Part shown: piece after piece, positions 5,082 through 30,357 of the stretch
How the letters are laid out: every line of letters starts with the position of its first letter
Position numbering within the stretch: position 1 is the first letter of the stretch
IMG/VR virus record: IMGVR_UViG_3300023371_000089
Coordinates: 1-64,000 of that record
DNA: 64,000 nucleotides
From: a virus
Taxonomy: Duplodnaviria; Heunggongvirae; Uroviricota; Caudoviricetes
Strand: one strand, 5' to 3'
The notes under the pieces: generated by a model
What the model was told of the DNA's origin: nothing
The model's database searches: none
What the model saw: the letters and a program-made list of their open reading frames with translations, nothing else
Program-made: the position numbers and the translations under genes

Positions 5082-5088
5082 ATTACTT

Positions 5089-5304
5089 TTATAGTTTAAT
5101 CATTTGTTTATCAAAACATCCATAATCAATGTTTGAACCATCATATTCCCCCCATTCATCCTCCCATTCACTTGCCCAAGCTTCATATTCCCAAGGCATT
5201 TCATTTTTAATAAAATCAATTGCATCATTATAGTTTTTATCTATAACAATTTTATGCTCAATGTCACCTGAACCTGTTTTTAATACATAACTATAAATTT
5301 CCAT
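5089..5304 (-). CDS. Small protein whose N-terminus resembles methyltransferase motif I and the following helix. It may be the detached C-terminal fragment of the upstream methyltransferase-like gene.
   Basis: YVLKTGSGDIEHKIVIDKNYNDAIDFIKNEM resembles FxGSGTT....hiGiE...Y...a..Rl. It sits 25 bp downstream of the methyltransferase-like ORF at 5330-6139. Confidence 0.3.
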   Translation of the reverse strand: MEIYSYVLKTGSGDIEHKIVIDKNYNDAIDFIKNEMPWEYEAWASEWEDEWGEYDGSNIDYGCFDKQMIKL

Positions 5305-5329
5305 AATTAACTACTTTTAATTTTTATTA

Positions 5330-6139
5330 TTACTTTACCTCCCAAACTTTACCTTCAAGTTCCTGATTTTCACAATTCTCTAAAATGTTAAAAAGGTTTG
5401 TCTTCTTAGCCTTCTTCTCATTCTTTTCAAAAACCCAAAATGTTGAAGTATATTTTCTTGCATGCTGTTGTGCCTTGTACTTACCTGCAGAAATTAGTCT
5501 TGCTTTTGCTTCAAGAATAAACTCATCCTTAACATAAAAACCAAGTTTCTGAGCAGACATGAATGCAAATGGTACAGCCCAAATTTCCAAGCCACCCGAA
5601 ACTGTTGATTGCATTTTAAAAACACAGATTCCTCCGGGTTTAAGGACTCTATAAGCCTCTTTAATCCACCAATATTCATTTTCCATAAGTTCACCCACAG
5701 GATAAAAGGATGAAAATCTCTTGGCTATCAATGATGAACCTTCTTTGTTATTAACAACACTTGGACAAGCCTTAGGAGAAATCACAAATGGAAGGTCAAT
5801 GACAATTGATTCGATGCTTTCATCTTCCAACGGAAGTTTTTCAAATGGGGTGATTTTACCAACCCTATCAAACTGAGGGAATACATCAAAAAGGTACTTT
5901 GGTTCAGGAATATGATATTCTTCACCTTTTCTATCTTCATAGAATTTCAATGTCGAGGCCGTAATATCACAATCAAATGGTTTACCACCGTTATGCAGTG
6001 TCATAATATTATACAATATCTCTTTTTGGTCATAAGAAATATTGCGTATAATCGTACTGTTATTAAACTCTTCTTTTGTAAGTCTTGCGTTATCTTCCAT
6101 ATATTTAAATTTTGTGCAAATATAGGTTTTTTTCTCCAA
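5330..6139 (-). CDS. Degenerate, possibly fractured beta-class (N6A/N4C, PF01555-like) DNA methyltransferase-like protein.
   Basis: It has a motif-IV-like IVIDLPFV in place of DPPY, then WIKEAYRVLKPGGICVF (the hallmark RVLKPGGs), then TFWVFEKN (like IIWxKxN). The C-terminal FxGSGTT motif I is absent from this ORF. Confidence 0.35.
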   Translation of the reverse strand: MEKKTYICTKFKYMEDNARLTKEEFNNSTIIRNISYDQKEILYNIMTLHNGGKPFDCDITASTLKFYEDRKGEEYHIPEPKYLFDVFPQFDRVGKITPFEKLPLEDESIESIVIDLPFVISPKACPSVVNNKEGSSLIAKRFSSFYPVGELMENEYWWIKEAYRVLKPGGICVFKMQSTVSGGLEIWAVPFAFMSAQKLGFYVKDEFILEAKARLISAGKYKAQQHARKYTSTFWVFEKNEKKAKKTNLFNILENCENQELEGKVWEVK

Positions 6140-12530: not shown

Positions 12531-13154
12531 ATGGCGACGGATAATAGTAATGCTATATACACAGCAGGAGAAATGCAAAATACAGGGAAGTTCAGTTTCA
12601 ACACAACGAACATCAATAACGCATCATACATACCAAGTTTAGATATGTGTCCAACAAAAGCCCAAATTACTGCAGCAGCAAAAACCGGTTATACTTTAAC
12701 AATTTCAACAGCCTATAATGCTAAACAACTTGTACCAAGCAAAGATTGGTCTATGACAAAAAACATTGGTAAACTAACAATTCATTTTTATACTAGTGCG
12801 TTAACATCAAACACAGTATTAAATGGATGGAGATATACAACTTCAACCCTCCCCTCGTTAAAATATAGCTCATTGGAAACAGGTACATCTATTTTTTATT
12901 GTTCACCAGGTACTTTAAACTCAACTTATACCACAGGTGCGACATTAACCCTTAACACAAGCAAACACAGTACATGGCCAATAGGTTCTTACCTCTGTTA
13001 TCTCGTATACATTTGTACAACTCAGACTGGTTATGCTGTATTATCTGGATATTATGAACCATCGGAAGCAAGTCAGTTAAATTCAGGAACTAACGTTGAA
13101 GCACTTAGGAACTGGTCAATACAAACCTTTACTTTTCAAGAATTTTATAGTTAA
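12531..13154 (+). CDS. Ser/Thr-rich beta-rich protein (possible fibre tip or receptor-binding-type moron). It is an isolated plus-strand gene.
   Basis: 207 aa with 30% or more S/T/N/G. It has its own AT-rich upstream region and ends at a strong terminator. Confidence 0.5.
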   Translation: MATDNSNAIYTAGEMQNTGKFSFNTTNINNASYIPSLDMCPTKAQITAAAKTGYTLTISTAYNAKQLVPSKDWSMTKNIGKLTIHFYTSALTSNTVLNGWRYTTSTLPSLKYSSLETGTSIFYCSPGTLNSTYTTGATLTLNTSKHSTWPIGSYLCYLVYICTTQTGYAVLSGYYEPSEASQLNSGTNVEALRNWSIQTFTFQEFYS

Positions 13155-13192
13155 TATTGAACATTTACTTACTTATTATATACTTACACACG

Positions 13193-13228
13193 AAAAAACG
13201 GGACCTGTCGTGAGACACATCCCGTTTT
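13193..13228. terminator. Bidirectional rho-independent terminator, copy 1 of an identical 35-bp hairpin.
   Basis: aaaaaacgggacctgtcgtgagacacatcccgtttt: stem AAACGGGA/TCCCGTTT with an inner tgtc-GTGA-gaca stem-loop, flanked by an A-run and a T-run. Identical to 28744-28778. Confidence 0.65.
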
Positions 13229-13231
13229 ATT

Positions 13232-14050
13232 TTAAAATCGTCTAATCTTATCCAAATATCCCTCAGATAATTCAATGATATTTGCTTTGTTAGCAAGAGA
13301 TTTAATAAGAAGTTGATTATGAAGAACAACAATAATTTGCACTGTTTGTGATGCATCAACCAAAAAATCCCTCAATGCTGCAAGATTATCCACATCAAGC
13401 CCCTCATCAGGTTCATCCATAATGAAAACCGCTTTCTTTGGGAGTGTATCATCATTAAAACCGTCAATAGCCTCTTTCGTTTTCTCAACAGCCTTTGTCC
13501 ACATATCATTCATCGGTTTTTTAGGAAACAAAGAATCTTTGGTATATACCCCCATTTTTTCATTGGCCTCAATGATTGCCATTTTAAGCGTATTTATCAT
13601 TCTCTGTCCTTTGCTCATTTTTCCTTCAGAAAAAAACTGTGCAAAATCACGGAAATTTTGAAAATTGTAACCGCCTCTCTTATTTTTCACACCCGTATCA
13701 TCCATTCTATGAACAGGAGCATCATAATCATTGACAATTCTGAACATATCCTGCGGCTTATAAGCGGGGTCAAACCCTGATGAATCAGGATAAAAAATCT
13801 TTACATCATCCCAAAACGTATATTCATTATTGAGGCCACCACGAGCAAGCGTCAACCTTGTTATTATATCAACCAATGTCGTCTTACCACAACCGTTTTC
13901 ACCAATAACAAGATTCAACCCCGGTGTAAACTCAATCTTCTTAGGAAGAAGTTTTCTTTTTTTCTCATTTTCATCCTCACTAAGATAATAATAGTCATTA
14001 ACACTATTCTTTGCCTTATAGTTAATTTCAAGTGTTTTAATCATAATCAA
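13232..14050 (-). CDS. Small ABC-type (RecF/SbcC-like) ATPase, 272 aa.
   Basis: Walker A GENGCGKTT, signature-like SEGKMSKGQR, Walker B/D-loop VFIMDEPDEGLD and H-loop VVLHN. Its start overlaps the stop of the pol-C gene (ATGA). Confidence 0.7.
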   Translation of the reverse strand: MIMIKTLEINYKAKNSVNDYYYLSEDENEKKRKLLPKKIEFTPGLNLVIGENGCGKTTLVDIITRLTLARGGLNNEYTFWDDVKIFYPDSSGFDPAYKPQDMFRIVNDYDAPVHRMDDTGVKNKRGGYNFQNFRDFAQFFSEGKMSKGQRMINTLKMAIIEANEKMGVYTKDSLFPKKPMNDMWTKAVEKTKEAIDGFNDDTLPKKAVFIMDEPDEGLDVDNLAALRDFLVDASQTVQIIVVLHNQLLIKSLANKANIIELSEGYLDKIRRF

Positions 14051-15597
14051 ACTGCATTATACTCACTAATACTCTCAATAAGGTCTGATAATGTCATAAG
14101 AACATATTCAGGGTACTTCTTTGAAACAAAATTTCCTGTCTTAGGGTCAATATCAGCAATTGCCGATATGCTCTTAGGTATATCCCCATCTTCAGCAAAT
14201 GCTACTTTTTCATCATATGGCAGGGCTTCAAACGCCTCATTGAATGCATTACGAATTTCATTAATACCCTTTTCCTCTTCCTCAGCCATTCTCCTATCAT
14301 AGTCAGCCACAATTTCCTCCCAATTCATAGAACATTCATCAATGAAAGGAATATCGAACTCAGGATGGGCTTTCCAAAAACGAATCTCCTTATCTTCCAT
14401 TGTCATCAACTGTTCATATGTATCTTGGTCGCCTTCCTTATTAGGTTGTCCCGAAGTAAGTACTGATTCTTCCTCGGTAAAATATGGACGGTCCTCAGGA
14501 TTGGTAATAAGAATACGTGTTCTAATATCTTTCGAGAAGCATACAAGAAGAGGTGTGATTCTCTTATTGAACATGTCAATATACTTTGCTGAATTATATT
14601 CCTCACCTTCCTGACAATATACATCTGTTTCAGAATCAACAATATTCTGTGGAAGAAGTCGTGCGTTAAGAATAATCTCATCCTCTTTCTGAGCATATGG
14701 ATAGGCCTTTGTTAAGAATTCATTCATTGTAAGGGACTTGTCCTCTTTCTTATGCGCCTTGAACTCCTTTTCAATTTTAGTGGTTACATCCACCTTCTCG
14801 TGTTCACCGTTTGATAAAGTCTGATATTCATAATATTTAGCCACTTTCTTGACATCAGCCTGTGACTTGCTTTTACCTGTATTTACATAATACAAAGTCT
14901 CACCCTGCTTGACATCAAGCCCTTCCTTAATTGCCAATTCCATCCATGCCTGACGTGACTTAGGCCTACCTGCCTTAGTAAGCGTCTTGCAATCCTTAAT
15001 ATAATCTTTAATGTTCTTTTTTACCTTACCCTTGGATGCAATATCCTTAAGCGGAATCTGATAATTGTATATCTTTTCTATATAAGAATAATATTCATCC
15101 AAAAATCCTGAGCCATTGTTCTGCAGAAGCAACCTGATACCTTTTTCAAGAAACTTTGAAATATATATAGGCATTTTCTTGGATTTAATGGTATTACCGA
15201 CAAGTTTCACATCATTAGGAAATGGATTTTCCGGGAAATAATCTGCGTAATTTTTACGTGAGAAGTTGATGGTCGAATCAACAATCTCATCTATGCCGAG
15301 TCCCATCTTTCCTCGCATATAAAGGTCATTGAACTCAGCGACATCGGCCTTGAAACCTGTATATTTTTGCCCTTCTACGACATTTCTATTTAGTCCTTTT
15401 CCAATGTAAGGGTTTTCGTCAGTATAACGATACTCTGACGGGAGTTTGAAGTTAAATCCGTCAGTATTTGAGATTACATTTAGTCCCAACGCATTTACAA
15501 TTGTACCATCACATGAAATATCATAAACGTAATCATCTGTTTTTCCCTTTTTCTCTACTTTAATCATATTAAAATATTTTTCATTAAGTTTTTGCAA
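14047..15597 (-). CDS. Family-B DNA polymerase C-terminal half. It comprises a split-intein C-fragment (IntC), then palm motif C (TDG), a KxY-like motif and the thumb domain. The probable start is the second ATG at 15567.
   Basis: From M11 the protein reads MIKVEKKGKTDDYVYDISCDGTIVNALGLNVISN followed by TDGFNFKL...SRKNYADYF. The first 34 aa resemble DnaE-type IntC (MIKIATRKYLGKQNVYDIGVERDHNFALKNGFIASN). The following TDG completes the YGD|TDG motif C whose first half ends the ORF at 20196-22730. Confidence 0.8.
   Translation of the reverse strand: MQKLNEKYFNMIKVEKKGKTDDYVYDISCDGTIVNALGLNVISNTDGFNFKLPSEYRYTDENPYIGKGLNRNVVEGQKYTGFKADVAEFNDLYMRGKMGLGIDEIVDSTINFSRKNYADYFPENPFPNDVKLVGNTIKSKKMPIYISKFLEKGIRLLLQNNGSGFLDEYYSYIEKIYNYQIPLKDIASKGKVKKNIKDYIKDCKTLTKAGRPKSRQAWMELAIKEGLDVKQGETLYYVNTGKSKSQADVKKVAKYYEYQTLSNGEHEKVDVTTKIEKEFKAHKKEDKSLTMNEFLTKAYPYAQKEDEIILNARLLPQNIVDSETDVYCQEGEEYNSAKYIDMFNKRITPLLVCFSKDIRTRILITNPEDRPYFTEEESVLTSGQPNKEGDQDTYEQLMTMEDKEIRFWKAHPEFDIPFIDECSMNWEEIVADYDRRMAEEEEKGINEIRNAFNEAFEALPYDEKVAFAEDGDIPKSISAIADIDPKTGNFVSKKYPEYVLMTLSDLIESISEYNAV
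15466..15567 (-). other. Split-intein C-fragment (IntC, 34 aa), immediately followed by the +1 Thr of the C-extein.
   Basis: The MIK...VYDI...N-Thr pattern matches IntC of naturally split inteins. Confidence 0.7.
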
Positions 15598-15801
15598 AAA
15601 TAAAAACTATTTTTCTTTTTTCCAAATATATTTTTTGGGAATGATATACAAGTTACACTAAAAATGCCATAAATAACTGAAGTCTATACGAAAATGTCTG
15701 GACTTTTTATGATATTTATTAAGAAAAAGTAGTATGAATTTACAATACGTTACTGCTAAAAATGTTAGAAATAATTTTTATAGTGAAAAATAAATATATA
15801 T

Positions 15802-16152
15802 ATGGAAAACCGAAATATAATACAACATCTACGTGGAAATTCACCATTATCAATTGGTAAAGCTAAAGAAATAGGAATGCTCCAAGGAGAAATTGCCATT
15901 AAACATGGTGTTAGCGGAGACTCAGAACTTTATGTATTATCACAAGATGGTGAAGCATTAGATATATTTGTTCCCAAATCGTATATTGATTCAAAACTGT
16001 TTTATGGTACACAGGCAGAATACGATGCGGCATATGCTGCTGGTAAAATTGCAATAGGCGCAATTGTTGTCATTATAGATGATGAAGAAAACACAAATGG
16101 CGCTTCATCTAAATTAGGTGAGGGTGTAATTGGAGAAATGATTTTAGAATAA
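15802..16152 (+). CDS. Small tail-fibre-associated protein with a phage-tail-repeat-like N-terminus.
   Basis: IQHLRGNSPLSIGKAKEIGMLQGEIAIKHGVSGDSELYVLSQDGEALDI follows the same hLxG...L..GEIA pattern as the N-terminus of the fibre protein at 54373-56067. Confidence 0.5.
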   Translation: MENRNIIQHLRGNSPLSIGKAKEIGMLQGEIAIKHGVSGDSELYVLSQDGEALDIFVPKSYIDSKLFYGTQAEYDAAYAAGKIAIGAIVVIIDDEENTNGASSKLGEGVIGEMILE

Positions 16153-16167
16153 AAAATAAATAAAGAG

Positions 16168-17031
16168 ATGATTTTATATATTAAAGGTGCTAATTTTTCA
16201 GCATCAAATATAGGAACACTTAGCACTTATATTGTGCAAAAAACTATGGGTGCAGGTATATCGCACAATATTCCTAATTTTATTAATAGAAACGAGGAAA
16301 ACGTAGTATGGACTGTTACATTATCACAAGATTATATATTTGGTGAATATAGTATTGTTATGGGTGGTGAGGTAATAGAACCAAATATTCAAGATAATAT
16401 TATGACTATAACAATTCCAGTAGTAACCAATAACATCAGTATTTCAATTGCAAGCATTTATGAAAATAATGGAGATGGAAGTGATGGACAAGAAACAGTT
16501 ATATTGTTAAACAATAATGTTAATTTCTCAGATTTAAGTGTTTCATCATATGGTCCTACTCAAGGTACAGGTGGTTCTTCATTCGTAGAAAGATGTGCTC
16601 TTTCAGGAGGTACATATGTAGATTATGTTGATTTTTATGTTATCACACCTAACAAAACTTTCCCTAGCGAACCTATAACTATTCCATATATTAAACTATA
16701 TTTTGTGGATGCTGAAACAGAAACTGTCGAAGAATTAGTATATGACCAAGCAAATCAATCATCTATTTTATCTGATACTACCGAAACAAATGGTTATCAA
16801 ATTATTAGATGTCCTATTAAACGTACATTGCAAAAAAATATTCATCTTGGTATTACAGTAAATGAAGGTTATAGTGATTATTCATCATTGTATACTATCC
16901 CTTATGTAAATTATACGACTTCTAATAGTATACTTGGTAAACCTTATTTTGGTACAACAATTGTTTTGGGACAAACAGTTGCAGGAAAAACTGCTAATTA
17001 TTATTGTCCTATGGTAATTTATGGTTATTAA
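16168..17031 (+). CDS. Putative tail-fibre or structural protein, 287 aa.
   Basis: Beta-rich and S/T/N/G-rich, in the same plus-strand fibre cassette. Confidence 0.5.
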   Translation: MILYIKGANFSASNIGTLSTYIVQKTMGAGISHNIPNFINRNEENVVWTVTLSQDYIFGEYSIVMGGEVIEPNIQDNIMTITIPVVTNNISISIASIYENNGDGSDGQETVILLNNNVNFSDLSVSSYGPTQGTGGSSFVERCALSGGTYVDYVDFYVITPNKTFPSEPITIPYIKLYFVDAETETVEELVYDQANQSSILSDTTETNGYQIIRCPIKRTLQKNIHLGITVNEGYSDYSSLYTIPYVNYTTSNSILGKPYFGTTIVLGQTVAGKTANYYCPMVIYGY

Positions 17032-17063
17032 AATATAATTTTTTTCAAAAAAAAATAATTGAC

Positions 17064-18182
17064 ATGGGTTATACAAAACAAGGGTTTGTGAAGGGAATGA
17101 CATTAGAGCATACTCACCTTATTAATATGGAAGATGGAATAATAAGTGCTTCACAAGGAGGTGTAGAGGATATTTATGCATCGTCATATGGTGTAGTACC
17201 TGGTGTTGTTGATATGAGTAAAATGAATGAGTTATTATCAGCAGCCAATGGCAAAACTATTAGGTTTAATGATGGTGAATATATTTTTCCTTCGCATATA
17301 ACAGTCCCTTCTAACATATCATTTATCGGAAACACTAAAACCATATTTAAATTATCAAGTGATAGTGCATCTAATATTCTTTTTTACATCGTTGGTTCGA
17401 CTAATGTGACAATTTCAAGAATGTTTATTGATGGCGGGGCATCTAAAGTGCAACCTACGGGTAATGTCGATGATATTCTTGATAAAACAAATTCAGGCAA
17501 TCGTTATGGTATTTGGTGTGAAAAAACCAGACGTGTTAAAATTACTGATGTTGATGTTTTAGGATGGGACATGTGTGGACTATATTGTGCAGACAACGAT
17601 TCAGGAGGGGGTGAATATGGCCGTTTCTTCCATACTATAGAAGTGACACGTTCTAGTTTTTATTTTAATTATTATGGTTTGTGGTTTGCTCAATATGGCG
17701 AATATAATCAGGTGGAATGTTGTAATTTTGGTGACAACTTTATTGGTGTTCTAAATGAAGGTGGAAACAATATGTATGTTGGCAACATGTTTTGTAACAA
17801 TTATTGCGGTTTTGCTTTGAATGGGGACGGAATTACTAACGAGTCACACGGAGGCTGTTATAGTTGTACTTACAACCATAATTCAATTACTGGATTAGGT
17901 GGCGGTGTTGCAATTTACATGAATAAAAGCACCGTTGGATGGAATTTTACGGGACAAAATATTTGGTATGGTGCTGTTACATTAAAAGATTGTAAAGGAG
18001 TTATATTTAATGGAAATATTTGGGGTAATGTTCAATTTACAAGTACACATTCAGAAGGATTAAAAAATCAAAATATGGTAACAAACACATACTTCCATAC
18101 CAACCCAAGTGCGGTGTTAAATGGAAATGATGGTTCGACATTTTTTGGACCTTATTTACCTGGGGGTGTGGTTAATGAATAA
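17064..18182 (+). CDS. Putative tailspike or depolymerase with a right-handed parallel beta-helix (pectate-lyase-like) signature. Start taken at the ATG at 17064.
   Basis: Repetitive G-x-N/I-x-I/V turns, for example NISFIGNTKTIFKL, NVTISRMFIDGG, VKITDVDVLGWDMCGLYCADND, NGNIWGN. Confidence 0.5.
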   Translation: MGYTKQGFVKGMTLEHTHLINMEDGIISASQGGVEDIYASSYGVVPGVVDMSKMNELLSAANGKTIRFNDGEYIFPSHITVPSNISFIGNTKTIFKLSSDSASNILFYIVGSTNVTISRMFIDGGASKVQPTGNVDDILDKTNSGNRYGIWCEKTRRVKITDVDVLGWDMCGLYCADNDSGGGEYGRFFHTIEVTRSSFYFNYYGLWFAQYGEYNQVECCNFGDNFIGVLNEGGNNMYVGNMFCNNYCGFALNGDGITNESHGGCYSCTYNHNSITGLGGGVAIYMNKSTVGWNFTGQNIWYGAVTLKDCKGVIFNGNIWGNVQFTSTHSEGLKNQNMVTNTYFHTNPSAVLNGNDGSTFFGPYLPGGVVNE

Positions 18183-18220
18183 CCACACCCCATTTTATAA
18201 AACAATAAAAATAACAAGAT

Positions 18221-20104
18221 ATGGCAACATTTTATATACAATTATCCGATAAATTGCTTAAAATAGGTGATGATGTAACTAAAGAAACAATTCATAAGGC
18301 TTTGGGGTATACTCCAAGTAGTTTTTCGGGTAATTTTAATGATTTGACTGATAACCCATTCGCAATTACTGATGATGGGGAATTTAATATTGTTGACGAA
18401 AATGGTAATATAGTAGCAAAATTCGATGATAAAGGTCTGCACGTTATTGATGTTGAAGTTATTTCTGAAGATGGTATTCATAAACTTTCTAATAAAGTAG
18501 ATAAAAATTATGTAGATAATCTAATTTTTAATGCTAATGAAAATTTACCTTTTAAAGAAGATGAATCAGGCTCTTTTGATATTGCGGATTTAAATGGTAA
18601 TATAATTACCAGCATAGATAGCAATGGTGTTTCTTCTGTAGAATTTAATGCACGTGGTCATAAATTAACTGAAAAAATTGATAATAATATACTTGAAAAC
18701 CGTTTAGATGATTTAACAACAACTAATTTTTCTTCAGGAGAATATGTTGATATTACTCTTAAACAAGAGAAAGGACGCATTACTAATGTTAAAATTAGTG
18801 ACACTAAGTTATCAAACGCAATTAAAATTGATGAAGACCCCGCATTTCAAATATCCGATAACAAAAATAACATTGCATTTAAGGTTGACGAAAAAGGGGC
18901 CGAGGCAGTGGAATTTCGTGCAGGTAAACATTATCTTACTAATAAAACGGAAAGAACTTACGTTGACAATGAACTTTTAAAACTTCGAGTTGATACTCAA
19001 AAATCGATAGGGAATATTAAGTTTTCTGACTTAACTGAAAATCCATTTAACGATTCAGAGGAAGGTACTTTAAAAATTGTCGATAATAAGACTAATATAA
19101 TAGTAACTATAGATAACAATGGCGTAACTTCAACTGAGTTTATTGCAGGAAAGCATAAATTAACTGAAAAATCAGATTTAAATTATGTAAATAATAATTT
19201 TTTAAACATCAACACTTCAGTTGGCACATTAAAAGACAATATCCAAAATAATGAAAAAAATATATCATCTTTAAGTGATGATGTAGAAACTTTAACAAAT
19301 GAAGTTTCTTTAAATACATCTGCTATTACTGAATTGCAAAATATAAAATATGCTTCTTCATCAAGTAAAGGTGGTGCGGCTGATAGTGTGGCTAATGCAC
19401 TAACAATTAAAGCAGGGTCAAGTAAAAACTTTAGTATCGACATTTTCAATGGTAGTTCTGTGACAACAATACCGCTACCAACAAAAATTAGTCACCTTGA
19501 AAACGATTCTAATTTAACTGATGACTTTAACGATGAATTTCATATTATTGATAATGAGGGCAATAAAATTGCGACATTTAATAATTATGGCTTATTTGTT
19601 TCGAAAGTTACAACTGTAGAACCTATAATTTCTCAAGATTTTATTGCAGGAGAACATAAGTTGTCCAATAAAGTTGATAAAAATCATATCGGTGATTCAG
19701 TTAAAAATGTTTTATTAACAACAAATGATTTAACCAATGAAGAAAAACAAACAATTAGAAATAACATAGGTTCTGTAAATAGTTTTGAACAGTATAGTAG
19801 TGATGGAGGAATTCTTAACGAGGAACAGTATAGAATAATGTCAAAATATTTATATACCCCATTTATGATTTCTTCTAACAGTGTGACTACAATACCAGAT
19901 GAATTATTGAATGAAAGTAAAACAAATTTTTTCTGTGATTGGTGTTGGAATATAATGAGAATAACAGGTGGTGAACCAATAGTTGTAGTTGAATGGGACG
20001 ACTATGATAACCCAACTAAGTTTAAAGGTCTTTTGAATGGAGTTACATATGTAGTCAATCGCACTAATTGGACCATTGCTCCTGAAGACTATTCGGGGGA
20101 ATAG
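18221..20104 (+). CDS. Tail-fibre protein carrying five internal repeats of about 75 aa.
   Basis: Repeats of the form ...F.I.D.NGNII..ID.NGV.S.EF.AG.HKLT.K.D.NYV.N... For example: EFNARGHKLTEKIDNNILENRLDDL, EFRAGKHYLTNKTERTYVDNELLKL, EFIAGKHKLTEKSDLNYVNNNFLNI, DFIAGEHKLSNKVDKNHIGD. Confidence 0.6.
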   Translation: MATFYIQLSDKLLKIGDDVTKETIHKALGYTPSSFSGNFNDLTDNPFAITDDGEFNIVDENGNIVAKFDDKGLHVIDVEVISEDGIHKLSNKVDKNYVDNLIFNANENLPFKEDESGSFDIADLNGNIITSIDSNGVSSVEFNARGHKLTEKIDNNILENRLDDLTTTNFSSGEYVDITLKQEKGRITNVKISDTKLSNAIKIDEDPAFQISDNKNNIAFKVDEKGAEAVEFRAGKHYLTNKTERTYVDNELLKLRVDTQKSIGNIKFSDLTENPFNDSEEGTLKIVDNKTNIIVTIDNNGVTSTEFIAGKHKLTEKSDLNYVNNNFLNINTSVGTLKDNIQNNEKNISSLSDDVETLTNEVSLNTSAITELQNIKYASSSSKGGAADSVANALTIKAGSSKNFSIDIFNGSSVTTIPLPTKISHLENDSNLTDDFNDEFHIIDNEGNKIATFNNYGLFVSKVTTVEPIISQDFIAGEHKLSNKVDKNHIGDSVKNVLLTTNDLTNEEKQTIRNNIGSVNSFEQYSSDGGILNEEQYRIMSKYLYTPFMISSNSVTTIPDELLNESKTNFFCDWCWNIMRITGGEPIVVVEWDDYDNPTKFKGLLNGVTYVVNRTNWTIAPEDYSGE

Positions 20105-20164
20105 CATAGACCCCGAAGATACATCAACTAATGATGAAAATGAAATCATAGAAGGAGAATAAAC

Positions 20165-20189
20165 AAACCCAGGATTTTATCCTGGGTTT
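20165..20189. terminator. Bidirectional terminator between the convergent fibre gene and the pol-N gene.
   Basis: aaacccagga-ttttat-cctgggttt, a perfect palindrome followed by a T-run. Confidence 0.65.
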
Positions 20190-20195
20190 ACTTTT

Positions 20196-22730
20196 TTAAC
20201 TATTTTTTATCATTTTCTTTACATATTGGAGACCTGCAACAATGGTTTTCGAGTACGTAACCCCCTCCTTATAATTCTCCATGAACGAATCGTAGAAAAT
20301 CTTCATATTCTCCTTTGTTGTATTGAAAATAACGCAGTTTATCTTGCCATTAGGATTGTTTGCCGCATCAATACCAATTTGTTTCCAATCATCATACGGG
20401 AAACGCTTCTGATTAAGCCCCTTTATCTCGCCCTCATAATACTCCAATTTCGTACTTTCATTTATCTCACTTGGTTTAATCTTAACCTTATCAGAATTGA
20501 AGAGGCTGTGGTCCTCAGTTACTTCCACCCTCATATCACCCTCAGAAACCTCGTATATTGGCTTATCGCACCCATGACGATAAATGTATTCAGGTGAAAC
20601 CCAACCACTTCTACAAAGCACTTCAAACGGCTTTTCTGAATAATCGTATTCCCTACCAAGTTCATCTACTTTAATAGCAAATGGATTGATAAGCGTTTCA
20701 ACAGGAAGAATGTCAATCAGCCCACTATTTTTCCAACGGATAAATAATGGCGTGTCAGGAGTGAAAGAGTCACCAACGATAGGTTTATAGCCAAGACTAT
20801 TAAAGTGAGAAATCATAAGGCGAAGGCACATACGACCTGTACATGTTGTCCTCTCAGCACATATCTTGCTTCCCCATGGAAAAAGATTCTCGGCCCCGTA
20901 TGACCCGAAAAAGCTATTACCTAACACCTTCATTTGAAGCTGTTTTTTATCATTTGCTGATTCCTCTTTTTCCACCAATTTCAATTTATCTTTTAACTCA
21001 TTAAGTTCATCATCACTACCACTAAAGTTTTTTATACGTTCTTTTAGTTTATCTATTTCTTTTCCTGCTTTTTTCTTAAGTTTCTTATATTTCTCACGTT
21101 CAGTAAGCACATATTCAAGGAACTTAAGCATTGAATCCATAAGGTCTCTACCATGAGTAATTCCCCATGTAAGAATAATTGACGGATAAAGTGAGTTAAA
21201 GTCAAATTTCGCAACATTATCAACAAATCCTACTGTGAGAAGTCTTGAGAGACCACCTGTAAATGTTCCACCTTCACCGAACTGTGGGATTGCGAGACCG
21301 TTTTCATATGACCAAGCAAGCATCAAACTTTTCCACTGTCCCGCAGTTCCCATTGTACAACATTTCTGGTATGGGACCGGTAGCATTTTACATATAAGAA
21401 AATTGGTTGTATTGTAACGATGTTCTACCTTATCACATTCCCAAAGGTCATCAAGAAGATAACGTTCAACAATGTACTTTCCTGTGGTAGGTAAATAACC
21501 GGCCTTAATTGGTTTATCTTCAGTTACTTTATACCAATCACCATTTTCATTATTCAATGCATATGTGTTAACAGTATCATTCCATGTATCTGAAATCTTG
21601 TCACCCGGTACATAGACACGGTTAACCTTTTCCATCTTTGAATACTTGGTAACGTACTTAAGGTCAGCCTTAAGCATATTACTGTCAATTGCCTGAGCGC
21701 GTCTTACCGCATGGAGAGAATCTGTCACAATTATTCCCGGAACGATTGTCTGCTTGAACTGTTCCACCTCACCACCAAGTTTAAGGACTGTATCCTTGGT
21801 ATTCTTTCTAATAACATCATCACCAAACATTTTCATCTCCTCACAAATGTACTCAATTGGATAGTCAAGTTGTTCACATCTTGTGATAATGAAGTTCCAG
21901 TCGAAGTTTTCTCCATTATGTGCCGTAATGACGTCAGGATTAAAATATTGAATCATTGAAAGGAATACCTTAATGTTGTGCAACTCACTTGCATCACGTT
22001 CTTCCTTTGTGTTTCCTGTTACTGTGAGGATGCGTTCAAAATCAACTTTTTTACCCTTATACATCACAGGACGATTAAAACGCACACCAATCTGATTGAT
22101 TCTATTATATCGAGGGTCGAGGCCTTCAGTCTCCAAGTCGAATATCATCCTCAAGAGTTTATCATAATCTTCATACCCCTTAAAGAATCGTTTTCCTGTG
22201 GATATCATGAACTGTTCCTGTGGAGTTACCACAAGATACTGTCTTTCATCTGCTTTTGAAACGAAATTCTCATTTTCCTCTTCTTCTGAGTTATCATCAG
22301 CCTTTGATTTCGAATATAAAGGGTTTTCGGCTTCTTTAAAGAATTTTGAAAATCTCTGATATGACATCGGCCTTTTTGCATAGAACATGAAGATATAGCC
22401 ATTGTCAGCGATTTCGGGAACCACTTCACCTTGATTATTCTTTGTATCAAGGACTTTTATGCCAATTCCAAATTCACGCATTAGGCGTTGCACTTCAGAA
22501 CGGTCTCCATTGCAAAGTTTCTCACAGGCTCTTCGTGTTGCCCACACGAATGGACGGAATGGTTCCATCTTGTAGTGTTTAACGTCATTTGCGTCCCTGT
22601 AGAACACTTTTATTTTATCTTCATTGTACTTATATTCAAGATTTACGATACGTTCCTGAGGGTCGGTACCATTAATAAATGAATTGATTACATCGGTCGT
22701 AATCTCTGTTTTTCTCTGAGGTTCAAGCAT
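20196..22730 (-). CDS. Family-B DNA polymerase N-terminal part (exonuclease, palm motifs A and B, first half of motif C) fused to a split-intein N-fragment.
   Basis: Exo I FDLETEGLD, motif A DFNSLYPSII, motif B KVLGNSFFGSYG. It then reads ...GYKPIVGD followed by SFTPDTPLFI (Hint block A) ...VEVTEDHSLFN (block B TxxH). The ORF ends with TAA at a terminator, without the second half of motif C or a thumb domain. Confidence 0.85.
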   Translation of the reverse strand: MLEPQRKTEITTDVINSFINGTDPQERIVNLEYKYNEDKIKVFYRDANDVKHYKMEPFRPFVWATRRACEKLCNGDRSEVQRLMREFGIGIKVLDTKNNQGEVVPEIADNGYIFMFYAKRPMSYQRFSKFFKEAENPLYSKSKADDNSEEEENENFVSKADERQYLVVTPQEQFMISTGKRFFKGYEDYDKLLRMIFDLETEGLDPRYNRINQIGVRFNRPVMYKGKKVDFERILTVTGNTKEERDASELHNIKVFLSMIQYFNPDVITAHNGENFDWNFIITRCEQLDYPIEYICEEMKMFGDDVIRKNTKDTVLKLGGEVEQFKQTIVPGIIVTDSLHAVRRAQAIDSNMLKADLKYVTKYSKMEKVNRVYVPGDKISDTWNDTVNTYALNNENGDWYKVTEDKPIKAGYLPTTGKYIVERYLLDDLWECDKVEHRYNTTNFLICKMLPVPYQKCCTMGTAGQWKSLMLAWSYENGLAIPQFGEGGTFTGGLSRLLTVGFVDNVAKFDFNSLYPSIILTWGITHGRDLMDSMLKFLEYVLTEREKYKKLKKKAGKEIDKLKERIKNFSGSDDELNELKDKLKLVEKEESANDKKQLQMKVLGNSFFGSYGAENLFPWGSKICAERTTCTGRMCLRLMISHFNSLGYKPIVGDSFTPDTPLFIRWKNSGLIDILPVETLINPFAIKVDELGREYDYSEKPFEVLCRSGWVSPEYIYRHGCDKPIYEVSEGDMRVEVTEDHSLFNSDKVKIKPSEINESTKLEYYEGEIKGLNQKRFPYDDWKQIGIDAANNPNGKINCVIFNTTKENMKIFYDSFMENYKEGVTYSKTIVAGLQYVKKMIKNS
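20199..20768 (-). other. Split-intein N-fragment (IntN) plus a C-terminal tail of about 65 aa. The N-extein is 20769-22730 (654 aa).
   Basis: The Ser1 codon is at 20766-20768, directly after the GD codons. Confidence 0.65.
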
Positions 22731-22854
22731 AAATTTTAAATTATATTTAATTGTTATTTTTGGTAAGGTTAAACCATAATCACTATGGTATCATTTACCA
22801 CCATATAATAATATATGTGCAAATATAGAAATAAGGTTTGAATAAAACAAAAAT

Positions 22855-22877
22855 AAAGAGTCTTATTCAAACTCTTT
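22855..22877 (-). terminator. Hairpin that overlaps the stop of the Dam-like fragment gene.
   Basis: aaagagt-cttattcaa-actcttt. On the minus strand it is followed by a T-rich run. Confidence 0.4.
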
Positions 22878-23429
22878 ATTCAGGTGTTTTTTTAATATAA
22901 ACAAATATTCAGTTGTATGAATATCTCGTTCTCTAAGGTTTCTGCTGCCTCTAAACGCAACGTAATCAATATTTTTAACTTTTAATTCCCCATATTTAGA
23001 AAGCATTTCTACCATTTCCTCATAAGAAATAAACCCTTCATTGTTATATGATATAATCAAATATTTTGAATCAATATCACTAACAAGTTCTTCAAATGTT
23101 TTTAGGGCGTCATTTTTCTTATTATAAGACGATTTGTTCCAATCATCAGGTATTCCCGCGACTTTACTAATGTTAGAACCTATTTCATTCTTTATAATAG
23201 TATTAAGCATGAAATAATTAGAACCATATGGATGTTGATTATATGGTGGGTCTATATAAGTTATATCAAGCCCTTTAAGATGTTTTACCAAGACATTAGC
23301 ATCCTCTTGAAAGAGACGCACATTTGAATTATAATTGGAAAACACGGGTTTTTTTAACTCTATTTTTCCCATTATACGTTCAAGGGCATTTAAACCGTTT
23401 GTCAATCTTCTTTGTAATCTTATCACCAA
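22863..23429 (-). CDS. Dam-family N6-adenine DNA methyltransferase, C-terminal portion only. It lacks the motif I/X SAM-binding half, so it may be truncated or non-autonomous.
   Basis: LDITYIDPPY (motif IV) followed by a T4/E. coli Dam-like C-terminus (...LIISYNNEG...VKNIDYVAFRGSRNLRERDIHTTEYLFILKK). Only about 60 aa precede DPPY, and there is no FxGxG motif. Confidence 0.55.
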   Translation of the reverse strand: MVIRLQRRLTNGLNALERIMGKIELKKPVFSNYNSNVRLFQEDANVLVKHLKGLDITYIDPPYNQHPYGSNYFMLNTIIKNEIGSNISKVAGIPDDWNKSSYNKKNDALKTFEELVSDIDSKYLIISYNNEGFISYEEMVEMLSKYGELKVKNIDYVAFRGSRNLRERDIHTTEYLFILKKHLNKEFE

Positions 23430-23492
23430 TATTGTACATATAAAATAGTGTTTTAAAATTATAATTTAAGTTACGACAAAAAACGTGCCAAA

Positions 23493-24221
23493 CTATATTA
23501 TCATTTCATAAATTTCTAAAATTGCAGATGGTGGGATATTATCTTTGGTATAAACTCCATAACTATAATTGGGGTCAAGATAGAAATCAATGTTTTCAGG
23601 AATCTTACTTACATCAATTATTAACAAACAATGCTTATCCTCGTCCTGTTTTACGGTTTTAAGTTGTTTTGTAAGGCTGTATATATCATCAGGAGGTGTA
23701 TCTTCAACAAATAGGTACACTCGTTCAGGATAAGAGAATAGTGGGTTTTTAAATCTCGGTGATAAACCTATTTTACTAATCTTTTCAACGTTCTTTTCGG
23801 AGGTAACATGATATATTCTATCCATACTCCTTACATACTTGTTTACATCATCCTGATTTTTAGGTTCAAAGTTAAGATATACCCAATTATCAATATACGG
23901 ATAATCATTTTCAACAGAACAAAAATAGCCACATAAATCCATTGCTTTCTTCACTTTGTCAATGATGTTCTCATTGTTAGGTATGATTACACGAAGTTTT
24001 TCAACTTTGTTATTACTGAAAACCTCTATCTGACTATCATCAAAATCATATAAATCAATGATATATTTTCTCGTTTTCTCTATTGGATAGGTTCTAATTA
24101 GGCCTTCCTCCAAGAAATTTCGTTTTTCATGAATCGCAATGGAAAGAGGGTTTCCATAAGAAAAATTCTCAATCACCCCTCTTTTCTCATTCCATTTCTT
24201 GATTATCCGCTTGCTAATCAT
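23493..24221 (-). CDS. Hypothetical protein, 242 aa.
   Basis: Long ORF. It is not the missing Dam N-terminal half, as it has no FxGxG. Confidence 0.45.
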   Translation of the reverse strand: MISKRIIKKWNEKRGVIENFSYGNPLSIAIHEKRNFLEEGLIRTYPIEKTRKYIIDLYDFDDSQIEVFSNNKVEKLRVIIPNNENIIDKVKKAMDLCGYFCSVENDYPYIDNWVYLNFEPKNQDDVNKYVRSMDRIYHVTSEKNVEKISKIGLSPRFKNPLFSYPERVYLFVEDTPPDDIYSLTKQLKTVKQDEDKHCLLIIDVSKIPENIDFYLDPNYSYGVYTKDNIPPSAILEIYEMII

Positions 24222-27204: not shown

Positions 27205-27420
27205 CCATTGCAGTCAACTACACCCACCTAAAGGAGGGTGCTTGACACTGCCTCGTTAGAGGCATGTCGATTGGGAGGTTGACTGCTCCCTGCCTGTAAG
27301 GATAACCAATTGACCTTCAATTGGTAAAAAACTCGATACAGGGTGGTTGGACCTTTGTCCGATATTAATCGCAGCATTCCAATCTGAGTCAAAGACAACT
27401 CCGTCAACGCAGATATATCT
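27205..27420 (-). ncRNA. Putative omega-RNA/reRNA scaffold of TnpB. It overlaps the tnpB 3' end and the right-end hairpin. The guide would derive from flanking DNA around 27205-27220.
   Basis: The position matches characterised IS605 TnpB systems (3' end of tnpB plus the right end). Structured elements include ccaattg-acctt-caattgg (27306-27324) and the right-end hairpin. Confidence 0.3.
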
Positions 27421-28583
27421 GCGACCACGGCGCTCTCCATCACGATTATTGGTGCGACAATCCATCTGACTTGTATACATCGGAGAAACTGTTTCCACCT
27501 GCTTGCCCGCAAGTGGTGCCTTGTAAGTCAATATACGTTTAAATTCATAAAATGGAATCTGAGATAAAGCATTGTTATGCTTCGCTCTCTTGTACCCCTC
27601 ACTGGTACGTGAAGTTTTCTTTTTAATCTTTGTGAGGTCTTCCATCACAATGATGGAAGCATTTGTACTATTAATGAGTACTTTACTTGCACGATAACAC
27701 ATGTCCTTAGAGAGGTTGCGTTCCTTGTTGCGAACTTTCTTAAGGTGGCGCTTTGCTGATTTGGTACCTTTCTCTTGTAGTTTACGCTTAAGATAACGGA
27801 TGTCCCTACGCTTCTTAAGATATGTTGTATCTTTAAATGCCTTACCCTCTGAGGTAACAAATATCATTCTTGCACCGAGGTCAACACCTATGCACTCCTC
27901 AGAATGTAATGGTTTTTCAGGTACTTCGAAGGGTACTGAAAGGAAGAAATTCCCGTTTCTATAGAATATTGTAGGGTCATATGCCTTATAAGTACTAAGC
28001 ATTTCTTTTGCCTTAGGATAGACATTAAAAGGTACGAAAGTACGTTTGTTTTTCTGTGCCCCAGTAATGGTTATTCCTTCAGATGTAAGCACTCCGTAGA
28101 GGCGTTTATCGAGGGTCATTGTTAATGATTTTCTCTGTGGTACTTCAGCGTTCTTATGTTTGTTTGCTTTAATTGATTTCAAAGCAGACGCTGCTGCTTG
28201 TTCGCACTTGATTACCATCTGTGAAGATAAAGCAGGAAACTCTGTCCTAATTACGTTATAACACGCCTCGTGTACTTTTTTAAGTGACAGTGTTATTTTG
28301 TTATCATGTAGAATACGTGTACACCTATTGTACGCATCTCTTGCACATACAAGAAGATTGTACCAATGCGTTGCATTGGTATCATCCATTATTAGAGGTA
28401 TGTTATAGGTTTGTACAATCATAGCATTCACGTATGTGATTTCTATATATAAATATTATAATAAATTAAAAAGTTTTATTTTTTTTTAAAAGTTATATAT
28501 TTACATTAAGAAAATAATGTTTAACCAAAAAGGGTTTAATCGTAGTTCCTCTCCACCCTAAAGGATGGAGTTTCCCTACGATA
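27221..28583 (-). mobile_element. IS200/IS605-family insertion sequence of the tnpB-only (IS1341-like) type. There is no tnpA.
   Basis: A TnpB ORF flanked by subterminal hairpins with similar loops. The right end at 27221-27240 reads CACCC-acctaaagga-GGGTG. The left end at 28551-28570 reads CTCCA-ccctaaagga-TGGAG, nested inside atcgtag...ctacgat (28538-28583). No Y1 transposase ORF fits between the ends. Confidence 0.65.
27256..28431 (-). CDS. tnpB: TnpB (IS605 OrfB family, RuvC-like RNA-guided endonuclease).
   Basis: RuvC-I IGVDLGARMIF, RuvC-II SIIVMEDL, RuvC-III FDSDWNAAINIGQR. The Zn finger is incomplete (2 Cys). The N-terminal domain is typical of this family. Confidence 0.85.
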   Translation of the reverse strand: MNAMIVQTYNIPLIMDDTNATHWYNLLVCARDAYNRCTRILHDNKITLSLKKVHEACYNVIRTEFPALSSQMVIKCEQAAASALKSIKANKHKNAEVPQRKSLTMTLDKRLYGVLTSEGITITGAQKNKRTFVPFNVYPKAKEMLSTYKAYDPTIFYRNGNFFLSVPFEVPEKPLHSEECIGVDLGARMIFVTSEGKAFKDTTYLKKRRDIRYLKRKLQEKGTKSAKRHLKKVRNKERNLSKDMCYRASKVLINSTNASIIVMEDLTKIKKKTSRTSEGYKRAKHNNALSQIPFYEFKRILTYKAPLAGKQVETVSPMYTSQMDCRTNNRDGERRGRRYICVDGVVFDSDWNAAINIGQRSNHPVSSFLPIEGQLVILTGREQSTSQSTCL

Positions 28584-28797: not shown

Positions 28798-30357
28798 TTA
28801 GTCGTGAAGAATCTGTTTACCCGTTGCTTCAACCTCAACATGTCCACCCTTAAGCGAAACATTTCTATCGGTCTTAGCATTAATTGTGTGGGACTCAAGA
28901 ATCTTAGAAAGGTCCACGCCTGTCGCATTGGAAACCGTATCAAATGTCTGTTTGATGACCATTGGGACATTTGCTGATACGCCTGAGACACCATTATTAT
29001 CACCGCCACCATAAATGGTAACATTATCAATTGACTTGATTGGTTCAGCAACGTTCTTGGCCATGTCAGGAAGAATACCAACAAGCATTTCAACAATTGC
29101 AGCATCATTATACTTCTGATAAGCGTCGGCTTTCTTGTTCATTGCTTCAGCCTCAGCCTCACCCTTCTTAAGAATTGCATAAGCCTCAGCTTCACCCTTA
29201 GCCTTGATACCGAGAGCCTCCTGTTCCATCTTAAACTTAAGTGCCTCAGCCTCCGCTCTCATAGCCTTTGCCCTCTGCTCAGCCTCATATGTCTCTGCTT
29301 CAGCCTTTCTCTTGCGCTGTTCAAGTTCTGCTGCAGCCGCAACTTCCTTATGATACTTATCAGCATCAGCCTTCTTATTTACTTCCGCCTCAAGAGTCTT
29401 CTGCATGATGGCAATTTCCTGAGCCTTCAATTCCTGTGTCTTGGCAGCCTTTTCAACCTCCGCCTCAACCTGCTTTGCATTGATTTCCTTGCGTCTTTCA
29501 GCCTCAATAAGAGCCTCGGCAGCATGTGCCTCAACGGTCTTCACCTTAATGGTCTTTGCCTGTTCCTGCTTCTGAATTTCATATGCAGCATCAGCCTCAG
29601 CACGTTTGATGTCTTCCGAAATCTTAAGTTCTGACTTCTTGATTGCAAGCTCATTGTTTTTCTCAGCAATCTTCGTCTCCGACGCAACACGTGCATCATT
29701 TGATTCCTGAAGAGCCTGAGCCTCTGCTACCTTCACATCCTTTGTGGCCTGTGCCTTATTAATGGCAGCCTCCTTAGTAATCTTGCATGTATTATCAGCA
29801 CCGAGAGCCTCAATAAGCCCCTCACGGTCAGTTACTGACTGAATATTACATGAAAGAATTTCAATACCCAGGCGTTCCATATCAACAGCAGCCTTCTTCT
29901 GAATCTGATTAGAGAAACCATCACGGTCTGTGTTAAGGGCGCGTAAGTCGAGTGTTCCAACAATCTCACGCATATTACCCTGAAGAACATCCTTCACCTG
30001 ATGAGATATCATCTCAGGAGACATATTAAGAAAGTTCGCACTTGCAAGCCTAATCCCATCTTCAGTTGGCATAATTCTAACCTTTGCCACAGCATCCACA
30101 TCTACATTGATGAAGTCTGAGGTTGGGACAGGGGTTGTTGTCTTTACATCAACTGTAATCTGTCCGGTATAAACCTTATCAAGTTTCTGAAAGAACGGAA
30201 TCCTAAATCCACCTGAACCAATAAGAATTTTAGGCTTTTTAGTAAGTCCTGATATAATATAAGCAATCTGTGGCGATGTCTTAACATAAGACGCAAAAAT
30301 AAAAAGGACAAGGAATGCCACAATTCCAATGACCACATAAGTAAGTGTACTTGACAT
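28798..30357 (-). CDS. Flotillin-like SPFH/band-7 protein (FloT/YqiK-type).
   Basis: An N-terminal transmembrane segment, then an SPFH core (...ILIGSGGFRIPFFQKLDKVYTGQITVDV...), then a long Ala/Glu/Lys-rich coiled coil (EAEAE repeats). Confidence 0.8.
   Translation of the reverse strand: MSSTLTYVVIGIVAFLVLFIFASYVKTSPQIAYIISGLTKKPKILIGSGGFRIPFFQKLDKVYTGQITVDVKTTTPVPTSDFINVDVDAVAKVRIMPTEDGIRLASANFLNMSPEMISHQVKDVLQGNMREIVGTLDLRALNTDRDGFSNQIQKKAAVDMERLGIEILSCNIQSVTDREGLIEALGADNTCKITKEAAINKAQATKDVKVAEAQALQESNDARVASETKIAEKNNELAIKKSELKISEDIKRAEADAAYEIQKQEQAKTIKVKTVEAHAAEALIEAERRKEINAKQVEAEVEKAAKTQELKAQEIAIMQKTLEAEVNKKADADKYHKEVAAAAELEQRKRKAEAETYEAEQRAKAMRAEAEALKFKMEQEALGIKAKGEAEAYAILKKGEAEAEAMNKKADAYQKYNDAAIVEMLVGILPDMAKNVAEPIKSIDNVTIYGGGDNNGVSGVSANVPMVIKQTFDTVSNATGVDLSKILESHTINAKTDRNVSLKGGHVEVEATGKQILHD

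Follow-up and report, generated by a model that had tools for sequence, protein, structure and literature searches.

The window analyzed here, a stretch of 64,000 nucleotides (positions 1 to 64,000 of IMG/VR record IMGVR_UViG_3300023371_000089), encodes a family B DNA polymerase (PolB) in two pieces that are interrupted by a naturally split intein. The first open reading frame (ORF), termed the N-half, runs to the middle of catalytic motif C and then continues into the N-terminal fragment of an intein (IntN). The second, the C-half, opens with the C-terminal intein fragment (IntC) and supplies the remainder of motif C. Judged by the conservation of the residues concerned, the two products are very probably joined by protein trans-splicing. 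Both ORFs are present on the minus strand as described in an earlier note, which was prepared from the letters of the sequence alone, and they flank a cassette of four genes on the opposite strand (Table 1). The sequence indicates that the source is an uncultivated jumbo phage, since a cassette protein was found on a contig of 349,824 bp and relatives occupy contigs of 274–373 kb. No close cultured relative is apparent, because a tblastn search of 50,697 GenBank phage records with the N-half returned solely Salinibacter phage polymerases at 23–26% identity; the same search with the C-half returned no matches.

The polymerase part of the N-half was recognized by Pfam models for the exonuclease (DNA_pol_B_exo1, PF03104; residues 191–354, E = 3e-11) and polymerase (DNA_pol_B, PF00136; residues 500–638, E = 2e-8) domains, and by PHROG 262 ('DNA polymerase', E = 1.5e-52). 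Motifs Exo I (residues 197–203), Exo II (272–280), Exo III (424–431), A (510–517), and B (601–612) could all be located. In a phmmer comparison with PDB chains, residues 488–654 align to residues 382–540 of the 9°N and KOD polymerases, and ..GYKPIVGD654 pairs with ..FKVLYAD540, whose last residue is the first of the two Asp in the catalytic YAD|TDG. The alignment stops at D540, which indicates that the polymerase sequence is left immediately after the first Asp of motif C. The assignment of the exonuclease, motifs A and B, and half of motif C to this ORF is thus upheld by both Pfam and phmmer. The 3′ end of the gene reads KNS-TAA (stop at 20196–20198) and abuts a hairpin at 20158–20196 that scores as a terminator on both strands, in agreement with the bidirectional terminator proposed previously.

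Directly after D654, the sequence reads SFTPDTPLFI (block A, in which Ser655 is Ser1) and, further on, VEVTEDHSLF (block B, or N3), a region that had been read as a Hint N-terminal fragment. A search with residues 647–844 returned 129 proteins, two of which are named 'intein/homing endonuclease' in Joint Genome Institute (JGI) annotation and one of which carries Pfam Intein_splicing. Residues 647–765 match the N-terminal part of a contiguous (cis) intein in the homologue P0109 with E = 6e-25 and 38% identity. A profile built from 29 N-halves matches the Aes123 PolB1 split intein (9hth, E = 9e-5) and a TFIIB mini-intein (E = 6e-3). The AlphaFold model of residues 647–844 is confident (predicted local distance difference test, pLDDT, 91.8), and IntN adopts the Hint fold. 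Together, these data establish the Hint homology and fold of IntN. The residues expected to carry out the chemistry were counted in 29 N-half relatives. Ser1 is kept in 27 of the 29, and the Thr and His of the block B TEDH (T738 and H741) in every one. The NX motif, R718-H719 (..YIYRH719..), has His in 29/29 and Arg in 28/29, and its aligned counterpart in the Aes123 PolB1 intein is K-H. This motif, a His that follows Arg or Lys, is a signature of Ser1 (oxyester) inteins and is essential in PolB16 OarG (Hoffmann et al., PMC10189870).

The C-half is listed as a 516-residue ORF. Its real start is probably the ATG at 15567, not the TTG at 15597, because 76 of 97 stand-alone homologues begin exactly 34 residues ahead of TDGFNF. 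From this second Met the protein reads MIKVEKKGKTDDYVYDISCDGTIVNALGLNVISN|TDGFNF, so the IntC of roughly 35 residues that had been proposed is 34 residues long, and it is kept across the 97 stand-alone homologues on which all IntC counts are based. The Asp of block F (VYD) and the terminal Asn of block G are both present (..VYDIS..VISN44|T45DG), and IntC is homologous to the C terminus of the P0109 cis intein (..YVYDISANGTFVNALGMITCHN). VYD occurs in ∼97/97 homologues and VYDI in 87. The terminal residue is Asn in 93 of the 97 and Gln in 4, with the endings SN (86), HN (3), and KQ (4), and Thr+1 is invariant in the C-half family alignment. The Lys-Gln endings before Thr+1 belong to P0059, P0079, P0087, and P0111, and represent rare glutamine-type termini in an Asn-type family.

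The C-extein gave no match in Pfam, PHROG, or NCBIfam scans of the C-half, and none to PDB sequences by phmmer or hmmsearch, even when a 32-sequence profile was used. Its identification comes from motifs and structure. TDGFNF and RKNY (the KxY motif, within SRKNYAD at residues 113–119) are invariant across the C-half family, in line with the earlier reading that the C-half supplies the missing TDG and a KxY-like RKNYA. The AlphaFold (AF2) model has a pLDDT of 78, and Foldseek superposed it on the 9°N, KOD, pol alpha, pol delta, and RB69 polymerases with probability 1.00 (E ∼2e-4, ∼139 columns). The '470-aa thumb-like region' of the earlier note is therefore correct for the ∼140 residues that superpose on PolB structures, whereas the remainder, the last ∼300 residues, has no structural counterpart. 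The IntC part of the model is disordered (pLDDT < 50), as expected of an unpaired split-intein fragment. Taken over both halves, the features of PolB are all present (Exo I–III, A, B, C, KxY, and the palm/thumb fold). With neither a Pfam nor a PDB sequence match, the C-half routinely stays 'hypothetical', and the polymerase looks truncated.

Homologues of the C-half define both the insertion site and the product. A total of 1412 were found at E ≤ 1e-3, most of which are full-length stand-alone genes, with ∼120 invariant positions. Among the best 120 of the 1412, 97 are stand-alone IntC-extein genes, most of them on contigs that reach up to 373 kb; 5 are contiguous and intein-free, 1 has a cis intein, and the other 17 are 5′-truncated calls or other forms. 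The intein-free proteins (P0094, P0103, P0115, P0008, and P0070) read uninterrupted ..PIVGD-TDGFNF.., which is the junction IVGD|TDGFNF that had been predicted. Contiguous homologues are collinear with the window, where one aligned block ends at 20766 and the next covers 15495–14059; the break thus falls at 20766/15465, and GD|TDG is where the exteins meet. The junction peptide predicted after splicing is ..PIVGDTDGFNFK... In P0109, a full cis intein occupies the same site (..YAPIVGD|SVTYDTP...CTEDHSLF...LYGFFMADGS...FLDGFCCGDG...YVYDISANGTFVNALGMITCHN|TDGFNF..) and carries Pfam LAGLIDADG_3 and Intein_splicing. The pol-c allele is characterized by insertion at YGD|TDS (Mimivirus) or YID|TDG (archaea), with Ser1, a terminal Asn, and Thr+1, and the split PolB of Nanoarchaeum equitans is broken at this very point (Ogata et al., PMC549080). 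By alignment, the ..VGD|S...N|TDG.. of the window is the pol-c site, which separates the first Asp of motif C from its Thr. The nearest inteins among the PDB chains compared are PI-PkoII (E = 0.003) and Aes123 PolB1. As in other naturally split inteins, IntN and IntC lie on separate ORFs with their own stop and start and are fused to collinear exteins. The split lies at the canonical position between N4 and block F, where endonucleases are inserted, with 113 residues plus a further 77 (discussed below) on the IntN side and 34 residues in IntC. The catalytic residues are conserved even though the exteins of the family have diverged to ∼60% identity. The C-halves of P0095, P0067, and P0120 lack IntC at their start, as well as the 'TD' of motif C (..HGRLGFNF.., MKGFNF.., and ..KSFNF..), which suggests either mis-called starts or that the site is interrupted in some other way.

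By these residues, the element is a class 1 intein of the Ser1/Thr+1 (oxyester) type. The two genes would be transcribed and translated separately, and IntN (113 residues with its 77-residue helical tail) and IntC (34 residues) would come together as a folded Hint domain. Splicing would then take the standard four-step course: an acyl shift from N to O at Ser655, trans-esterification to Thr45, cyclization of Asn44, and an O-N shift. The product would be a contiguous polymerase of ∼1126 residues, or ∼130 kDa, with an intact motif C (..PIVGDTDGFNF..).

Several observations weigh against this interpretation. Pfam Hint/intein models give no direct match to the N-half at E ≤ 0.1, and PHROG and NCBIfam scans likewise give no Hint/intein match to it. 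Profile searches of both ORFs had been put forward as a check; PolB models did match the N-half, but a direct Pfam match to Hint or intein models was not obtained, and homologue profiles and structure served instead. Foldseek ranks split inteins first for IntN alone, but weakly (E 0.03–2). The penultimate His of block G is replaced by Ser43 here and by Ser in 86 of the 97 homologues, whereas the cis relative P0109 has HN, and IntC also has no block F His. Charge complementarity between the fragments is not striking (net charge −9 for IntN and −1 for IntC) and was dropped as a supporting argument. Splicing itself is argued from residue conservation, and the 64 kb inspected belong to a genome of at least 350 kb, which could hold a second, intact polymerase elsewhere. 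The two His residues assist Asn cyclization in many inteins, and inteins that splice without them are known. We therefore consider the missing penultimate His to be a deviation and not a disqualification.

The earlier note was right about the Hint fragment, but it left uninterpreted a further 77 conserved residues that follow it. All N-halves run 64–87 residues (most 73–80) past block N4, and the tail shows a conserved pattern (..DRvP..iLN....k.F.........SKT..AG.qyLK). The model of the tail has four helices, predicted with high confidence. A profile of 26 tails aligns to residues 225–282 of the P0109 intein, which contain the second LAGLIDADG motif (..KRVPECILNSDKEVKKAFLDGFCCGDG...QKSKVAMGGLYFILKEL), with an hhalign probability of 80% and E = 1.4e-5. 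The gaps in this alignment fall at the catalytic GDG loop and the β-strands, both of which the tail lacks. BLASTP of the 77 residues against the P0109 cis intein gave no significant match, and Pfam scans of the 26 tails gave noise only. On the strength of the profile alignment, we read the tail as a vestige of the second half of a LAGLIDADG homing endonuclease. Its conservation suggests that it is still useful.

At least 10 contigs encode the exact C-half protein. The same order (N-half, opposite-strand genes for 627, 372, 287, and 116 residues, C-half) is seen at four loci, each in a different sample assembly, and their cassette proteins are 100% identical. The source samples are represented by ENA assemblies ERZ27248306, ERZ27248326, ERZ27248436, and ERZ27248446. 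Because the identical layout recurs in at least four separately assembled samples, assembly error, which the earlier note had listed as something to check, is excluded. The relatives are organized differently. On the 373-kb contig of L002 (P0104), the N-half, an endonuclease gene, a nucleotidyltransferase gene, a 70-residue ORF, and the C-half all lie on one strand. The halves on the 274-kb P0064 contig flank an opposite-strand gene for 545 residues, an 84-residue ORF, and an endonuclease gene. In L008 (P0003, 37 kb), there are five genes between the halves, three of which are endonuclease-like, and L012 (P0004, with an 88%-identical C-half, 45 kb) has a lone endonuclease gene there. The order is permuted in L010 (P0021, 329 kb), where the C-half lies 9.5 kb upstream of an N-half whose first 175 residues are 56% identical to those of the window (E = 1e-66), and in L009 (P0019, 166 kb) no N-half was found within 10 kb upstream. 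Together with the separate stop and terminator of the N-half in the window, these two loci indicate that the halves are independent genes.

Free-standing endonuclease genes lie between or beside the halves in L002, L008, L010, and L012. The DUF723/treble-clef genes of the relatives match phrog_559 and phrog_3339 ('HNH endonuclease' and 'homing endonuclease') with E values down to 1e-138. DNA homology between the window and L012 covers the N-half as far as 20202, at its stop codon, and is picked up again at 15586, ∼20 nucleotides upstream of the IntC ATG; what lies in between, 4.6 kb in the window and 1.85 kb in L012, shows no relationship. Since homology stops this sharply at both edges of unrelated contents, the gap between the halves is a replaceable slot with sharp boundaries; its contents vary within the clade and, in relatives, usually include a homing endonuclease. 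In L012 itself (4454–4567, 4714–5988), a stop closes the IntC ORF immediately behind 'TDG', and the C-extein continues in another frame ∼146 nucleotides further on, which reflects either two frameshifts (from assembly error or decay) or an unrecognized insertion.

Trans-splicing has to be weighed against three other explanations. The halves might form a non-covalent two-subunit polymerase, held together by the intein fragments without any splicing. Split PolB enzymes that work without splicing do exist (PMC2677866, citing Petrov/Karam and Kelman; PMC3045599), one being gp43 of certain T4-like phages, which is split but has no intein; NrdA of phage Aeh1, also a split protein, offers a further precedent. 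The absence of the penultimate His would fit such an arrangement, and the conserved 77-residue tail could be an interaction module. However, the break falls inside the catalytic YxD|TDG, and an unspliced complex would leave ∼190 + 34 foreign residues in the active site. Moreover, residues needed only for the chemistry (Ser1, the NX His, TxxH, the terminal Asn/Gln, and Thr+1) are all conserved, which would not be expected of a role in binding only, given an extein identity of ∼60%. We regard this explanation as unlikely.

The proposal that the halves are a decaying pseudogene pair, with replication left to another polymerase elsewhere in the genome, draws on the limited 64 kb inspected and on the apparent frameshifts in the L012 C-half. 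It is very improbable: both ORFs are intact, more than 1400 C-half homologues exist, most of them full-length stand-alone genes with the ∼120 invariant positions, and the called genes around the halves of relatives show one PolB N-half only. In the window, no PolB-like sequence was found apart from the two halves, and no contiguous PolB, the presence of which elsewhere would have contradicted the earlier note, came to light in the 64 kb inspected (the genome is at least 350 kb long). Even less credible is a separation that is an assembly artifact or an invertible or mobile segment, with the halves really adjacent, fused, or joined at the RNA level by an intron or trans-splicing. The opposite strand and reversed GC skew of the cassette superficially resemble an inverted insert, but no inverted or direct repeats flank it, and four sample assemblies share the layout and 100% identical cassette proteins. 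The stand-alone IntC start is kept in 97 relatives with differing neighbors. RNA joining is contradicted by the stop and terminator of the N-half, by the separate ATG of IntC, and by an Rfam scan of positions 13000–24000, in which no intron or ribozyme was found; the earlier note had likewise stated that the intervening DNA is not an intron. Protein trans-splicing of two separate gene products thus remains our strongly preferred explanation, and the reconstruction of the polymerase given in the earlier note held at every point checked.

We propose that this site once held a cis intein with a LAGLIDADG endonuclease, which was then largely lost, leaving the helical tail. The gene would next have been split immediately ahead of block F, the probable agent being a free-standing homing-endonuclease gene, and in the window phage the endonuclease slot would now hold the four-gene, opposite-strand, tail-fiber-like cassette. 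A more elaborate idea, which we put forward as doubtful, is that the slot is kept as a site of exchange by homing endonucleases that cut an intein-less or differently occupied pol-c site. Cutting would be followed by repair from a co-infecting relative and co-conversion of the DNA between the halves, so that host-range (tail-fiber) cassettes such as that of the window could hitch-hike between jumbo phages along with the split intein. The same doubtful proposal includes exaptation of the 77-residue tail, which may, for example, help an unusually long IntN to stay soluble or to assemble and would then not be debris.

The four cassette genes were found on the strand opposite the polymerase halves as the earlier note had described, and calling them tail-fiber-like is reasonable, although the evidence from sequence is moderate. 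The 372-residue protein matches phrog_25268 ('tail protein') over residues 61–122, ∼60 residues (E = 4e-8), and by tblastn it matches NosD-like tail proteins of Sinorhizobium phages (E = 4e-5, 16% of the query). A terminator-like hairpin lies at 18163–18191. The 627-residue protein has no direct Pfam, PHROG, or NCBIfam match of its own, and no tblastn match in the GenBank phage records. Its 102 homologues have mosaic C termini, some with Phage_fiber_2 (PF03406), SASA esterase, GDPD, Laminin_G_3, or Big_2 domains, a pattern typical of receptor-binding proteins. The gene holds four diverged copies of a 53-nucleotide repeat (18479–19707, plus strand; 62–72% identity) that encode a recurring ..HKL(S/T)xKxDxNYV.. 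peptide motif. Pfam, PHROG, and NCBIfam scans gave no informative match for the other two genes, and detected no endonuclease signature in any cassette gene. A search for inverted or direct repeats flanking the cassette, as marks of a transposon or invertible segment, yielded nothing convincing. The claim that the cassette has its own promoter and terminator is supported in part: the terminators are plausible, but promoter-like hits near the cassette are no more frequent than in shuffled sequence.

Split PolB inteins were already known in phages and archaea, and the window adds a member. N. equitans Neq Pol (NEQ068 and NEQ528) has the same pol-c break point, but it is archaeal and thermophilic, its halves are unlinked, and its sequence similarity to the window is not detectable. 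We know of no endonuclease vestige reported in its IntN. Cysteine-less split inteins in phage PolB include Aes123 PolB1, CP21 PolB1, LCGC14 PolB2, and GOM-OPS-1 PolB2, and the jumbo phage MIJ3 also has a split PolB. These derive from T4-like or Pseudomonas jumbo phages, and none is reported with a 77-residue vestige or with structural genes between the halves, as seen in the window with its 34-residue IntC; in MIJ3 an HNH gene occupies the place of the tail-fiber-like cassette. PolB16 OarG, from a sheep gut metagenome, is atypically split (IntN 15 residues, IntC 168 residues), and its site lies two residues further on (..GDTD|S), with Ser at +1. The cis pol-c inteins of archaeal and Mimivirus PolB share the insertion point, Ser1...Asn|Thr+1, and a LAGLIDADG endonuclease (PMC549080), but are contiguous, unlike the window; P0109 is such an intein within the family itself. 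Jumbo gut (Jug) phages have split DNA polymerase genes, and the paper on them describes no split intein or trans-splicing for the polymerase. Their genomes have a GC content of 27–30%, compared with 31–42% in the window and 39% in L002, which argues, though not decisively, against membership of the Jug clade.

The closest organizational parallel is the fractured gene, for which the 2009 paper gave both the layout and a model of decay into unlinked halves (Dassa et al. 2009, PMC2677866). There too, two split-intein gene halves lie a few kb apart on one strand. L002, L008, and L012 fit that model exactly, with a free-standing homing-endonuclease gene between the halves (PMC2677866), although the endonucleases of these relatives (DUF723 treble-clef repeats; phrog_559 and phrog_3339) appear to differ from the GIY-YIG and Vsr-like ones described there. 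The window departs from it in having no endonuclease gene between the halves and four opposite-strand tail-fiber-like genes instead. The earlier note had called its layout unusual, even among fractured phage genes. This needs qualifying, since the slot is variable within the clade, the halves can even be permuted, and split phage PolB inteins had already been described. What sets the system apart is the conserved endonuclease vestige on IntN and the variable cargo between the halves. It is also notable that the family is large (∼100 natural Ser1/Thr+1 variants in the top matches), that almost all of its members have lost the penultimate His, and that a few end IntC with Gln. The family includes intein-free genes, a cis LAGLIDADG intein, halves flanking an endonuclease, halves flanking cargo, and permuted halves; since one family displays every proposed stage, the gene-breaking model of Dassa et al. 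can be tested by phylogenetics. Natural split inteins that use Ser/Thr and not Cys are rare and are sought for ligation under oxidizing conditions (PMC12707363, PMC10189870). In its top matches the family offers ∼100 natural variants, including Asn-to-Gln forms and forms with a His-less block G, and also an unusual IntN with an extra domain.

Table 1. Coordinates of the two polymerase halves, the intein fragments, and the intervening cassette in the window
Feature	Position	Strand	Description
N-half ORF	20196-22730	-	844 residues
N-extein, PolB residues 1–654	20769..22730	-	Pfam, phmmer, motifs; contiguous homologues align up to 20766
IntN, residues 655–767 (113 residues)	20430..20768	-	Ser1, R718-H719, T738-E-D-H741, N4 ..KLEYYEG
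Helical tail, residues 768–844 (77 residues)	20199..20429	-	Putative LAGLIDADG second-half vestige
N-half TAA stop and bidirectional terminator-like hairpin	20158..20198	.	Terminator call on both strands; common to the convergent 627-residue gene
Cassette gene 4 (627 residues)	18221..20104	+	Repeat-containing; tail-fiber-like (receptor-binding) candidate
Cassette gene 3 (372 residues as called on public contigs)	17064..18182	+	Candidate β-helix tail protein
Cassette gene 2 (287 residues)	16168..17031	+	No family match; co-oriented and tightly packed with neighbors
Cassette gene 1 (116 residues)	15802..16152	+	PF24243 phage tail tip domain, E = 0.022, below threshold
Divergent intergenic region, IntC start to cassette gene 1	15568..15801	.	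Promoters presumed
C-half ORF	14047-15597	-	516 residues
IntC, M11–N44 of the listed ORF (34 residues)	15466..15567	-	MIKVEKKGKTDDYVYDISCDGTIVNALGLNVISN; stand-alone homologues start here
C-extein, T45–V516 (472 residues) and stop	14047..15465	-	Motif C TDG, KxY, remainder of palm, thumb-like part, ∼300 lineage-specific residues

Other genes in the window and in its relatives were noted in passing. A 188-residue ORF beside the polymerase (22863–23429, minus strand) matches D12-class N6-adenine methyltransferases in their C-terminal part only, with match spans covering positions 158–236 of 253 in the Pfam model and 223–378 of 798 in phrog_27806; it may be another truncated or split gene. Inside the phage genome lies a TnpB-like ORF with OrfB_IS605 and Cas12f1-like TNB domains (27256–28431, minus strand), and TnpB-like genes also occur near the polymerase halves in L008 and L009. 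Genes for IMPDH with Hint/Vint intein domains were found in relatives (P0064 contig, 21053–21575; L011, 10214–10745), and the clade appears to be rich in inteins beyond the polymerase. The window further encodes, all on the minus strand, an SPFH/flotillin-like protein (28798–30357), flotillin being unusual phage cargo, a DnaG-type primase (33434–34582), and a giant ORF of 2449 residues (56637–63986) with BspA-type leucine-rich repeats (LRR_5, E = 2e-30).

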